Source of the DNA: a virus
Taxonomy: Duplodnaviria > Heunggongvirae > Uroviricota > Caudoviricetes
Virus record (IMG/VR): IMGVR_UViG_2563366944_000002
Span: 1 to 20,260 of that record
Reading direction: 5' to 3' (one strand)
DNA length: 20,260 bases
Position 1 is the stretch's first letter. Every line of letters begins with the position of its first letter. Shown one piece after another: positions 2,429 to 20,260 of the stretch. Position numbers and translations under genes: made by a program. Below the pieces are notes generated by a model. It ran no database searches. It saw only the letters and a program-made list of their open reading frames with translations, and was not told where the DNA came from.

Positions 2429-2525
2429 GCGTTAATTTTTTTGTCGTGATATAAGAATAATTCCTTACACTTAATCTTCGTAACTCTCCCGCAGTTCCTG
2501 TCCGCGATCACTGCGGGATTTTTTT
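2429..2525 (+). ncRNA. Candidate small RNA of about 95-100 nt, from the predicted promoter to the intrinsic terminator; no ORF or RBS inside
   Basis: Predicted start ~7 nt after the -10. The body is AU-rich (TTAATTTTTTTGTCGTGATATAAGAATAATTCC) and ends in an 8-bp GC-rich stem plus T7. No ATG or GTG with an RBS in the interval. Confidence 0.4.
2487..2525 (+). terminator. Rho-independent terminator, plus orientation
   Basis: Stem TCCCGCAG (2487-2494) pairs with CTGCGGGA (2511-2518), followed by TTTTTTT (2519-2525). The opposite strand has no T tract after the stem. Confidence 0.6.
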
Positions 2526-2532
2526 ATTCTTT

Positions 2533-3213
2533 TTACCCCTGCCGCCCGATAACCACGACCTTTCCGCCCCCGCCTTCATCACGGGTGCTGATGTCCTGGG
2601 ATATACGGCGGGAGCCAACCAGCATTTCCCCGTAAGGCACCGGCATCGGGTTCCCCTGGGCAATCATGTTATCCAGTGAGGAAAAGTACGTGTTCTGTCT
2701 GCCGTTATCCGTTGCGCGGTAATCCGGTGTTTTTGCCTTCGGGGCCAGCATCTGGGCCACTCCGCCCAGTATCATGCTGGCACCCAGTGAAAACAGCATC
2801 GTGGTGGCAGAAAAACCACCGGCACTCAGGGCTGTACCCCATAACGCCATCGAGCCTCCGGCCGTGAAGAAAGAGCCCACGATGGCTGCCGCCCCCAGCA
2901 CAATCTGCAGTCCACCCTTTCCGGCCCCGGCCAGTCGCGGCACAATGTGGATGACCGTTCCCTCACCCAGCTGTTCGTGAAGACGGGCGTACACCGCCTC
3001 CGGTGCCGTGTCATCACCGGCAATACGTATCTGGTACCAGCCTTCGTTCATCTGACGGCGAAAGCCCGGCATCTGCATCGACAGGGCGCGAATGGCTTCC
3101 GCTGCCGTGTTCACATACAGGCTGAGGCGGCGGCCAAATCGTTGCAAATCCCCGTGAAGGCAGATGCGTGCCAGTGGCGGTGACGCCAGACAGAATGCGT
3201 TCGTCGTTGCCAT
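2533..3213 (-). CDS. I: Tail assembly protein I
   Basis: 226-aa ORF MATTNAFCLASPPLARICLHGDLQRFGRR... collinear with lambda gpI (remembered MAATHTLPLASPGMARICLYGDLQRFGRR...); position between K and J. Confidence 0.9.
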   Translation of the reverse strand: MATTNAFCLASPPLARICLHGDLQRFGRRLSLYVNTAAEAIRALSMQMPGFRRQMNEGWYQIRIAGDDTAPEAVYARLHEQLGEGTVIHIVPRLAGAGKGGLQIVLGAAAIVGSFFTAGGSMALWGTALSAGGFSATTMLFSLGASMILGGVAQMLAPKAKTPDYRATDNGRQNTYFSSLDNMIAQGNPMPVPYGEMLVGSRRISQDISTRDEGGGGKVVVIGRQG

Positions 3214-17975: not shown

Positions 17976-18440
17976 CTACTTAATGCACTGGGTGCGGATA
18001 TATTCCTGCAATCCCCGAATCATTCTGTCGCTGGTTGCGATTCGCTCTCTGAGGGTGAAATAATCCCGTTGAGCGGCGTCAGTAAGTCCGGGGCGGGCTG
18101 CATCATCCACGCCGGTGGTGCCGGTGGCTTCACGCACGGCTGGACAGACTGCTCTGATGCGCAACCGACGACGACCAGCGGCAATATCATCACGCAGAGC
18201 ATCATTTTCAGCTTTCGCATCAGCTAACTCCCTTGAGTATTTTTCATCGAGTGCAGCAACATCACGCTGGCGCTGCTGCATATCAGTAATGGTTGCATTT
18301 GCCTGCTCCAGCTCACTGACTTTTTTATCGCGCTGCTCTTTGTAGGTTATGGCGTTATCACGGTAATGATTCAGCCCCAGACTAAGCGCACCACAGGCCA
18401 CCAGCAGGGCAATGATGACCACGCACAGTACGCGGTTCAT
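17976..18440 (-). CDS. Rz: Spanin inner-membrane subunit Rz (i-spanin)
   Basis: 154-aa ORF with an N-terminal TM segment then NHYRDNAITYKEQRDKK...AKAENDALRDDIAAGRRRLRI, closely matching lambda Rz as remembered. Confidence 0.92.
   Translation of the reverse strand: MNRVLCVVIIALLVACGALSLGLNHYRDNAITYKEQRDKKVSELEQANATITDMQQRQRDVAALDEKYSRELADAKAENDALRDDIAAGRRRLRIRAVCPAVREATGTTGVDDAARPGLTDAAQRDYFTLRERIATSDRMIRGLQEYIRTQCIK
18020..18220 (-). CDS. Rz1: Spanin outer-membrane lipoprotein Rz1 (o-spanin), embedded in the +1 frame of Rz
   Basis: MRKLKMMLCVMILPLVVVGCAS... with a lipobox (VVGC) and proline-rich CVKPPAPPAWMMQPAPDLLTPLNGIISPSE, the same pattern as lambda Rz1. Confidence 0.85.
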   Translation of the reverse strand: MRKLKMMLCVMILPLVVVGCASEQSVQPCVKPPAPPAWMMQPAPDLLTPLNGIISPSESESQPATE

Positions 18441-18441
18441 T

Positions 18442-18579
18442 TCACCACCAGCGTATCTGACCGATGAAATAACCGGAGGCCATAATCACAAACACCAGCC
18501 AGATAAGAATGAACTTCCAGGTGGATAATTTTTCAGCCATCACTCGAATCTCCCGAATCAGTTTGCTAAAATCAAACAC
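18442..18579 (-). CDS. Candidate 45-codon single-pass membrane protein between endolysin and Rz (GTG start; alternative ATG at 18540 gives 32 aa)
   Basis: Not in the track (below 60 aa). AAGGAG sits upstream of a GTG at 18579 with a short spacer. Hand translation: MFDFSKLIREIRVMAEKLSTWKFILIWLVFVIMASGYFIGQIRWW; the stop is 1 nt from the Rz start. One hydrophobic helix. Prediction only. Confidence 0.3.
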   Translation of the reverse strand: MFDFSKLIREIRVMAEKLSTWKFILIWLVFVIMASGYFIGQIRWW

Positions 18580-18615
18580 ACTTTCTCCTTTGACTTTTCC
18601 AGAGTCAGGAAACAC

Positions 18616-18649
18616 AAAACCCCGCTTGCAGCCAACAAACGGGGTTTTT
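18616..18649. terminator. Hairpin with T/A tracts on both sides (bidirectional terminator-like) in the endolysin-Rz gap
   Basis: CCCCGCTTG / CAAACGGGG stem (one mismatch) with a 7-nt loop, followed by TTTTT on the plus strand and preceded by AAAA (a U tract on the minus strand). Confidence 0.4.
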
Positions 18650-18738
18650 ACTTTTATTCACTTAGGTTTTGCCAGTTCTCAGGATTTCGTGTTATCCGTC
18701 CGCATTAGCCAACGTCATTTTTCAACAAAATATTCTGC

Positions 18739-19272
18739 TTATTTGTCAATTCCCCAGCACGCCAGCGCGCTCTCCTGGTCACGCCGTGAGACCTGTCCAT
18801 AGCAGTTATTTGAACGAATACGGCAGTCTCTGCCACCGTCCTTAATCCACCAGCGAATCGCCTCACATGCTCCCCTGCGATCGCCTGCATTAATTCGTTT
18901 ATAAAACGTCGACGGGAAACACTTACCGGGGCCAATGTTATACGGGCAGAATGACGCAATACCCGCTTTCTGTGGTTCAGTCAGTGGCACTTTGATGTTT
19001 TTCGCCACCCATGCCAGCGCCTTATCACGCTCAATGGCGTTAACCTGGTCGCATTTTTCCTTCGACAACTTCATGCCGGGGAGGACAGGCTTACCATCCA
19101 CCCGGGTGGCTCCACGGCAGATGGTCCAGATACCCGCGCCATCACGGTATGCCGTGGTGTGGTTACCTTCCTTTTCATCCAGAAACTGGTCGAGAATGTC
19201 AGGCGCAGGCGCACCAGCGGCAATCAGCGCCAGAACGGCAGCCGACAGGCCGTATTTGATTTTTGCGTTCAT
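18739..19272 (-). CDS. R: Endolysin, lysozyme-like with N-terminal signal-anchor-release (SAR) domain
   Basis: 177-aa ORF with an N-terminal weakly hydrophobic Gly/Ala-rich segment (GLSAAVLALIAAGAPA) followed by a catalytic E-x8-D-x5-T pattern (EKEGNHTTAYRDGAGIWT), as in P21-type SAR endolysins. Weak RBS. Confidence 0.9.
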   Translation of the reverse strand: MNAKIKYGLSAAVLALIAAGAPAPDILDQFLDEKEGNHTTAYRDGAGIWTICRGATRVDGKPVLPGMKLSKEKCDQVNAIERDKALAWVAKNIKVPLTEPQKAGIASFCPYNIGPGKCFPSTFYKRINAGDRRGACEAIRWWIKDGGRDCRIRSNNCYGQVSRRDQESALACWGIDK

Positions 19273-19400: not shown

Positions 19401-19715
19401 ATGCATAACGATCAACATAATTATGATTTATGCCTGCAAGCCATAAATGAGCGGGTAAAATCAGAGTGCCTCTTACTCCTCCCACAAGAACACGATGCAG
19501 TAAAATCCATTCAGGCTGAGCCGTATGGACATCTCACACCTGTGACTCTCGGCATTATCGCCAGAGCATTAACACAGCCCATGCTTATGCGTATTAAGAC
19601 CAATATAAATAACTGGTTGAATGAAGAATTAAGCTACCTTGATTGTGAGTGGGACAATCATTACGCAAAAACACAAAAAGAACGCATCTTCAGTCGATTA
19701 TCCAGCAACAGATAA
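19401..19715 (+). CDS. Hypothetical protein (104 aa) on the opposite strand to the late operon, AT-rich cargo gene
   Basis: GAGG RBS 8 nt before the ATG at 19401; region is clearly more AT-rich than the structural genes; convergent with the 177-aa ORF (9 bp between stops). No recognisable motif. Confidence 0.55.
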   Translation: MHNDQHNYDLCLQAINERVKSECLLLLPQEHDAVKSIQAEPYGHLTPVTLGIIARALTQPMLMRIKTNINNWLNEELSYLDCEWDNHYAKTQKERIFSRLSSNR

Positions 19716-20258: not shown

Positions 20259-20260
20259 AT

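Follow-up and report, generated by a model that had tools for sequence, protein, structure and literature searches.

Background

In phages lambda and 21 the endolysin gene R and the gene Rz are adjacent, and in the Qin prophage of Escherichia coli K-12 the lysozyme and Rz genes overlap by 4 nucleotides (nt), as they likewise do in prophages PP2 and PP5 of strain E2348/69. What, then, are the 298 nt that intervene between the same two genes in IMG/VR virus record IMGVR_UViG_2563366944_000002? The stretch analysed here, positions 1 to 20,260 of that record and called the window below, belongs to an E. coli prophage and has the layout of a lambda-like late region where, along the minus strand, lysis genes are followed by terminase, portal, head and tail genes; the flanking genes, their order and an Rz1 gene embedded in Rz are those of the lysis cassettes of lambda (S-R-Rz/Rz1), phage 21 (S21-R21-Rz/Rz1) and H-19B. 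We report that the spacer carries a hairpin, a short leader and a 45-codon open reading frame (ORF) which, on comparative evidence, together form a conserved mobile cassette encoding a predicted single-pass membrane peptide (PHROG 6632), and that the first codons of this ORF are frozen at synonymous sites in a manner that fits an internal start codon, an antisense promoter or both.

Results and discussion

A conserved peptide gene between lysozyme and Rz

A preliminary description of this DNA, made from its letters, had pointed to an AT-rich insert of some 300 bp between endolysin and Rz, and the composition bears this out, the spacer having 42% GC against 54–55% in the flanking genes. Read 5' to 3' on the minus strand, it consists of an 89-nt AT-rich segment, the hairpin, the short leader, a Shine-Dalgarno (SD) sequence AAGGAG, a GTG codon, 45 codons in all and TGA. 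The short ORF that had been singled out for its good ribosome-binding site, single transmembrane (TM) segment and stop abutting Rz has all three properties; a single base separates the stop from the Rz start, the two tryptophan codons and the stop (TGGTGGTGA) supply an SD-like GGTGG for the downstream gene, and an equally tight junction to the downstream gene is found in Citrobacter, where that gene is Rz, and in loci where it is gpW.

In 298 nt an ORF of 45 codons is no statistical rarity, and a scan for terminator-like sites gave one where 1.9 are expected in shuffled sequences; the weight of the argument therefore rests on conservation. Among 204 homologous copies, drawn from genomes, IMG/VR and metagenomes, the reading frame is intact in 202 across about 50% amino-acid divergence, so that the refutation which the preliminary description had proposed for itself, interruption or absence of the ORF in close homologues, did not materialise. 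A crude estimate of pN/pS (nonsynonymous over synonymous diversity) for the gene is 0.32, and conservation centres on the hydrophobic core (residues 23–39), on M14, W21, K22, F23 and W27 and on a C-terminal RWW. The start codon is never ATG in the 204 copies, being GTG in 177 and TTG in 17. Because the frame is intact in all but two copies, under purifying selection and with a conserved TM pattern that includes invariant Trp, Lys and Met residues, we take the 45-codon ORF, on these alignments, to be a real, conserved gene for a single-pass membrane peptide. That it might instead be a frame left open by chance in a decayed stretch between genes would agree with its ordinary length and with its being skipped in many genomes by the NCBI Prokaryotic Genome Annotation Pipeline (PGAP), but the comparative data just given effectively refute this.

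The peptide matches PHROG 6632 over the full profile (E = 1.4e-29; residues 13–57 of a 57-residue frame against profile positions 1–45 of 45), and divergent members of the family match it too. One TM segment is predicted, at residues 23–39, with five positive charges on its N-terminal side and one on its C-terminal side, which indicates an N-in topology; this supplies the prediction that the preliminary description had called for. An AlphaFold model has a helix at residues 4–17, a kink and a second helix at residues 20–44, with a predicted local distance difference test score (pLDDT) of 84. The family occurs in Escherichia, Salmonella, Citrobacter, Trabulsiella, Edwardsiella, Yersinia, Izhakiella, Sodalis and Brenneria, and further in Pantoea, Symbiopectobacterium, Serratia and one metagenome-assembled genome of Azoarcus. 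An exhaustive hidden Markov model search of 1.84 billion representatives returned 40 clusters, all of short proteins, and no link to any larger family. Neither Pfam and NCBIfam (E <= 0.1) nor PADLOC gave a match for the peptide, and the holin or antiholin membership suggested for it found no counterpart in these collections.

The ORF had also been described as unannotated, which is true of part of the record: PGAP leaves it uncalled in many genomes and the entry for H-19B leaves the whole cassette unannotated, but PGAP does call it in some genomes (WP_000459345.1), phage CP-1639 has it as CAH23245.1, and PHROG 6632 exists as a family. Literature searches on WP_000459345, on phrog_6632 and on the topic returned no paper or expression data, nor do the supplements of the Sakai RIBOseq small-gene study list the peptide. 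In IMG/VR contigs L112–L114 one locus carries two tandem, divergent peptide genes, at about 2989 and about 3255, with no upstream hairpin, and one of these copies has another, hydrophobic N-terminus (MKFLFIVYKLL...), which suggests that members of the family have been duplicated and have exchanged N-termini.

A predicted two-way terminator and a structured leader

The two-sided hairpin terminator noted in the preliminary description is present, with U tracts on both strands; that of the sense strand extends to about 18606 and the antisense tail occupies 18649–18659. Folding of the sense strand yields -21.6 kcal/mol (z = -4.8), that of the antisense strand -14.2 kcal/mol (z = -3.8). Pairing is kept in 95% of alignment cells, and compensatory changes affect both sides of 8 of the 11 pairs, a level that none of 500 shuffles attained; slid controls give 35–62%. 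In essentially every clade both strands form a stable hairpin, and in nearly every one both have a U tail; within the E. coli clade the sense form is clearly the stronger, and the asymmetry between G·U and A·C pairs, as a clue to the acting strand, is mixed between clades and not decisive. We regard the hairpin as a credible two-way intrinsic terminator, termination itself being a prediction.

The leader that follows consists of a U-rich tract and a small stem-loop abutting the SD. The sequence of the stem varies by clade (CCTTG/CAAGG, CGTTA/TAACG, GGCAG/CTGCC, CCTG/CAGG), and the stem and its position next to the SD are kept. A long-range fold of the sense mRNA, in which the leader pairs with codons 2–4 and the internal SD, was rejected as a conserved structure, occurring only in the window and not in other clades. 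Searches of Rfam at gathering and permissive thresholds, covering the window and 20 related loci, gave no family match over the cassette; the best sub-threshold match, to the rimP leader (28 bits against a threshold of 47), is driven by the hairpin alone, and a weak match to IS009 likewise reflects only the hairpin.

The cassette travels between late operons

A hairpin of the same kind lies 35–40 nt upstream of the ORF in every clade, while what lies beyond the unit, 5' of the hairpin or 3' of the stop, depends on context; the conserved unit thus begins at the hairpin. The 89-nt segment that precedes it in the window is common to E. coli R-Rz junctions, whichever small genes come next, and also lies 5' of different peptide genes in O104:H4, O26:H11, CP55 and Sakai Sp15. 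Nearly the whole of a 421-nt query, made up of the cassette and its flanks, is held by about 870 of 5,426 complete E. coli genomes. The cassette is found at 94–97% identity in H-19B (where the insert is 95% identical), CP-1639, TL-2011c and many phages that convert to Shiga toxin (Stx) 1 or 2 production. Nearly all E. coli copies of this lysozyme/Rz pair have an insert at the junction, of about 300, 330, 490 or 640 nt; K-12 and prophages PP2 and PP5 of E2348/69 are without it, and the junction in Sakai Sp15 differs, holding ant and ECs_5741.

At most loci the order is endolysin, peptide, Rz, and the endolysin may be a glycoside hydrolase (GH) family 24 enzyme of the signal-arrest-release (SAR) type, a GH19 enzyme, a GH108 enzyme with PG_binding_3 or a 138-residue type. 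At about 30 loci the peptide gene instead lies between the baseplate spike gene gpV (PF18352 plus an Apex motif) and a gpW-like gene, and at a few more the unit stands in other structural contexts. Because its contexts include both endolysins of several unrelated families and gpV-gpW, the cassette is mobile and tied neither to SAR endolysins nor to lysis genes; the specific association with the SAR endolysin that had been drawn from the window does not hold, the cassette standing behind GH19, GH108 and another non-SAR endolysin as well as at gpV-gpW. By these comparisons hairpin, leader and ORF together are a conserved mobile cassette in the late operons of Enterobacterales prophages.

Such a distribution bears on the first function that was suggested for the peptide, that of a lysis-timing factor, a TM peptide that would modulate a holin, antiholin or pinholin and so tune lysis by pinholin and SAR endolysin, with the 45-residue form and a putative 32-residue form (see below) acting like a holin/antiholin dual-start pair. 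Most copies do lie directly between endolysin and Rz, across all four endolysin types; from the sequence, expression of the peptide would come from the late operon and be coupled to that of Rz; the gene has two candidate in-frame starts, and its product one TM segment with a charged extension on the N-terminal side; and further small TM peptides occur at other R-Rz junctions. However, the baseplate copies are far from any lysis gene, a complete set of holin, endolysin and spanin exists without the peptide, the peptide resembles no holin or antiholin family and there is no specific co-occurrence with SAR endolysins. The window had appeared to contain no holin, for which the peptide might stand in, because it ends before the holin position: in sibling prophages, including identical ones, a class II holin gene precedes the lysozyme gene by about 1.3 kb, which corresponds to a point just beyond base 20260. 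We therefore consider a role in lysis timing unlikely, though it deserves to be kept in view.

The cassette also invites comparison with the morons of lambdoid phages. Like these, it is extra DNA of deviant GC content inserted between genes that are adjacent in relatives, it is found at several sites in late operons and it encodes a small accessory protein. A classic moron, however, following the definition of Juhala et al. 2000 as cited in PMC4104026, is flanked by its own promoter on the upstream side and by a terminator on the downstream side, and the lysogen expresses it. In the cassette the terminator is upstream, the stop abuts the next gene and the sole predicted promoter faces the opposite way; a promoter scan of the window found no sigma-70-like promoter on the sense (minus) strand.

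Frozen codons at the start of the gene

Synonymous diversity (pS) is 0.29 in codons 2–13 and 0.64–0.79 in the remainder of the gene. Codon usage was compared across 11 clades that share less than 80% nucleotide identity over the TM region, which is saturated at synonymous sites between them. Across these clades Asp3 is always GAT, codon 4 ends in T, Lys6 is AAA, Arg9 is NGG and Glu10 is GAG; Ser5 is AGC in 10 of 10 clades, as against 6 of 19 elsewhere in the gene, and Arg12 is CGA in 10 of 10, as against none of 9 elsewhere. Two readings, an internal start and an antisense promoter, both fit the frozen codons and are not mutually exclusive.

The first reading concerns the invariant ATG of M14. 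GGGAG sits 9 nt before it, and the Arg9 and Glu10 codons (NGG, GAG) from which this motif is built are constant in 10 of 10 deep clades; in the most divergent member the amino acids differ, but AAGGA stands at an unchanged distance from M14. Where the first start has been lost (it is GCG in locus L152 and GTA in L156), truncated (L017) or replaced (L112), the ORF from M14 persists. Initiation at M14, giving a predicted product of 32 residues, is thus rather probable.

The second reading concerns the opposite strand, on which the same codons spell a predicted extended -10 promoter. Its -10 hexamer takes the forms TAAAAT, TAATAT and TAAGAT, varying solely at the tolerant -9 position, and in L016 TGaTAAAAT is kept despite Asp-to-Asn and Ser-to-Ile changes in the peptide. 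It is because the synonymous sites are frozen across the 11 clades that we infer such a promoter. From it an RNA of about 80 nt would run as far as the hairpin, with a predicted fold of 5' stem-loop, A-rich linker and terminator (-21.9 kcal/mol, z = -4.2). Conservation of the antisense U tail extends to cases with a poor sense U tract, such as L016. We put the existence of this cis-antisense RNA over the first ribosome-binding site at slightly below an even chance. A 97-residue antisense ORF (18509–18802, plus strand) was also considered and rejected, since it depends on context-specific upstream sequence.

It may be asked whether the RNA element and the peptide have anything to do with one another. 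The hairpin might be just a terminator or 3'-end stabiliser that sets the ratio of endolysin to spanin mRNA, the ORF just a 45-residue moron peptide and the synonymous constraint a matter of translation initiation. The greater strength of the E. coli hairpin on the sense strand would suit this, as would the general frequency of AU-rich, weakly structured 5' coding regions and the silence of the promoter scanner on the antisense promoter. Yet hairpin and ORF travel together into unrelated contexts, the invariant AGC and CGA are not AU-rich codon choices, the antisense U tail is kept where the sense tract is poor and the internal SD is retained through amino-acid changes, so that we hold a mere juxtaposition of unrelated parts to be improbable.

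Likeness to antisense-regulated systems

A hydrophobic peptide of fewer than 60 residues with a predicted cis-antisense RNA over its initiation region recalls the type I toxin–antitoxin (TA) systems hok/mok/sok, ldr/rdl and ibs/sib, and mok/hok in particular, in that here too an upstream initiation site would be the antisense target. The cassette could accordingly be imagined as a stand-alone type I TA or abortive-infection module, a candidate depolarising toxin with an antisense antitoxin, which would stabilise the prophage or exclude other phages. At 45 or 32 residues the peptide is small and hydrophobic enough, the predicted RNA covers its ribosome-binding site and ends at the shared terminator, the start codon is consistently weak and the cassette moves between contexts. 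On the other hand, the conserved unit, starting as it does at the hairpin, contains no sense promoter from which a toxin could be autonomously expressed, the cassette is always co-directional within late operons, and it matches no known toxin or antitoxin family, type I or other, in Pfam, Rfam or PADLOC. We judge this explanation improbable.

The SieB protein of phage P22 is much larger than the peptide and is expressed from the early region of its prophage. At the P22 sieB/esc/sas locus the choice between two in-frame translation starts is switched by an antisense RNA (cited in PMC7067206), and the likeness lies in the two in-frame starts of a membrane-protein gene and in an antisense RNA that is predicted to begin within the 5' portion of that gene and to extend over the first of them. 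The features of the cassette differ in being predictions, and the peptide has no similarity to a curated family (SieB was not compared directly). Because it lacks a sense promoter of its own and shows no homology in the family searches, the cassette is assigned neither to the type I TA systems nor to the sieB type.

Similar in setting are PasB and PasC of enteropathogenic E. coli (EPEC) and STnc6030 of prophage BTP1, short RNAs directed against a late operon and ending at intergenic terminators; they differ in having no sequence relation to the cassette, in being experimentally validated and in not being tied to a small ORF. PasB is an 83-nt Hfq-dependent small RNA (sRNA) validated by Northern blotting in EPEC E2348/69, and STnc6030 is an antisense sRNA within the late operon of BTP1 (PMC7067206). 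The window itself holds a homologue of PasB (2445–2527, plus strand) in the gap between tail genes I (2533..3213, minus strand) and J, oriented against the late operon; its 3' 25 nt, including the terminator (2501–2525), are identical to PasB, overall identity is about 80%, and the element is not in Rfam. This PasB-like element and STnc6030 are precedents for antisense sRNAs in late operons, and as such we count them in favour of the antisense RNA proposed here. As candidates for the R-Rz element itself the known sRNAs were rejected: PasA and PasC lie upstream of the holin and PasB, unrelated in sequence, between I and J; STnc6030 belongs to a different locus; and the anti-sRNAs AgvB and AsxR are located at the stx moron site, not in the R-Rz spacer.

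A proposed mode of action

The anatomy of the cassette, its conservation and mobility, the selection on its coding sequence, the covariation in its hairpin and its frozen synonymous sites are all there to be read in the alignments, and the following account is built on them. A compact, horizontally mobile cassette would have been inserted into a late operon that is antiterminated by Q, bringing with it a bidirectional terminator, a structured leader with an SD and the gene for an N-in inner-membrane peptide with a second in-frame start; its first 13 codons would at the same time encode an extended -10 promoter on the opposite strand, from which an antisense RNA of about 80 nt would run to the same hairpin. 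In the lysogen the hairpin would halt stray sense transcription and the antisense RNA would block or redirect translation of any leaky mRNA, so that the peptide stays off. Upon induction, Q-modified polymerase would pass the hairpin and abundant late mRNA would exceed the antisense RNA, and the peptide would be produced alongside the lysis proteins, at this locus translationally coupled to Rz. That a late membrane peptide is kept off in lysogens in this way, by terminator and cis-antisense RNA, we hold to be a serious possibility, if one not quite reaching even chances. The peptide might then be a late and potentially harmful membrane effector, for instance a lysis modulator or a depolariser, though a function in lysis specifically is doubtful. 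A more elaborate version, by analogy on a small scale with sieB/esc/sas or with holin/antiholin pairs, would have the cassette as a portable, antisense-gated dual-start switch that temperate phages of enterobacteria, many Stx phages among them, insert into late operons. In the lysogen the RNA would pick between 45- and 32-residue isoforms of opposing activity, for instance an effector and its inhibitor, so controlling lysis timing or the abortion of competing phages, with a safety catch of the type I TA kind; this we think rather unlikely.

Several points weigh against the lysogen-silencing account. With 3 of 6 matches the -35 element is a weak one, and the promoter scanner does not call the antisense promoter; the antisense form of the hairpin in the window has a C·A mismatch and is the weaker of the two (-14.2 against -21.6 kcal/mol); and the leader stem-loop is unexceptional in stability (mean z = -0.65). 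AU-rich codon bias near start codons is in part a general effect of translation, and the IMG/VR homologue sample is phylogenetically non-independent. The roughly 30 baseplate loci are a further difficulty, since a phage without antitermination would pay a price for a terminator between gpV and gpW in its tail operon. Finally, the literature searched holds no transcript, transcription start site, ribosome-profiling or phenotype data for the locus.

Other features of the junction and its neighbourhood

The features of the window discussed above are collected in Table 1.

Table 1. Positions in the window of the R-Rz junction features and their flanking genes
Feature	Position	Strand	Description
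Lysozyme	19272..18739	minus	PF00959; N-terminal hydrophobic SAR-like stretch
R-Rz spacer	18441-18738	minus	298 nt between SAR lysozyme and Rz/Rz1
AT-rich segment 3' of lysozyme stop	18650..18738	minus	89 nt, 38% GC
Hairpin, predicted bidirectional intrinsic terminator	18616..18648	both	14 pairs, U tracts on both strands
Structured leader	18580..18615	minus	U-rich tract; stem-loop TGACT/AGTCA (18591-18607) abutting SD (GGAG, 18585-18588)
45-codon peptide gene, GTG start	18442..18579	minus	Predicted single-pass membrane peptide, PHROG 6632: VFDFSKLIREIRVMAEKLSTWKFILIWLVFVIMASGYFIGQIRWW
Candidate 32-residue isoform	18442..18540	minus	Invariant ATG of M14 (18540-18538); SD GGGAG 18554-18550
Predicted antisense promoter	18544..18572	plus	-35-like TCGAAT 18544-18549; 17-nt spacer; extended -10 TGcTAAAAT 18564-18572
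Predicted cis-antisense RNA, about 80 nt	18579..18659	plus	Spans first start codon, SD and leader; ends with hairpin and U tail
Peptide stop/Rz start junction, TGA-A-ATG	18440..18444	minus	TGA 18444-18442, one base, Rz ATG at 18440
Rz	18440..17976	minus	PF03245
Rz1	18220..18020	minus	Embedded in Rz

Other small peptides occupy the same position elsewhere. A leader pattern search found the same hairpin and leader ahead of an unrelated 60-residue family (family B, phrog_1115/4493) in 96 of 120 IMG/VR matches. In this family a -10-like TATACT is found at a distance of 4 nt from the start-codon complement, and there is also an in-frame ATG inside the gene, with the SD GAGG, so that the family seems to repeat the architecture of the PHROG 6632 cassette, which is suggestive but not strong evidence; as a homologue of the PHROG 6632 peptide it was rejected (hhalign probability 15%). 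A 28-residue fragment resembling family B occurs at other R-Rz junctions and ends in IRWW just before Rz. A third family (43 residues, phrog_4906) is identical with ECs_5741 in Sakai Sp15 (L202:749-895), at whose R-Rz junction an inserted antirepressor gene is also found. Junctions in which the hairpin and leader are followed by other TM-peptide genes were seen at L197 (O104:H4 2011C-3493), L198, L199 and L203–L282. The R-Rz junction thus emerges as a hot spot for at least three unrelated families of small membrane peptides, PHROGs 6632, 1115/4493 and 4906.

Just upstream of the lysozyme gene a 104-residue ORF (19401–19715, phrog_1853) lies on the plus strand, against the direction that the rest of the lysis region shares; annotations of sibling prophages show this layout too, with a truncated YdfR-family gene next to the holin gene. 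A few kb upstream of the cassette in loci of Salmonella or Citrobacter type, the Rfam sRNAs isrI and STnc100 are found (L129:819-915, L116:1717-1813, L008:1119-1329), which shows these late regions to be dense in sRNA genes.

Conclusions

PHROG 6632 is a family without known function that has been annotated inconsistently, and we found no characterisation of the cassette in the literature searched; the frozen synonymous codons 2–13, with the internal SD and ATG that they would preserve on one strand and the extended -10 on the other, are new findings. The cassette is common in E. coli and is carried by H-19B and many Stx phages, in which the timing of lysis governs toxin release. If the proposed mode of action is true, its combination of terminator, antisense RNA and dual start would offer a compact model for the silencing of a membrane-active late protein in lysogens, and a fourth regulatory layer would be added to the textbook lysis cassette.

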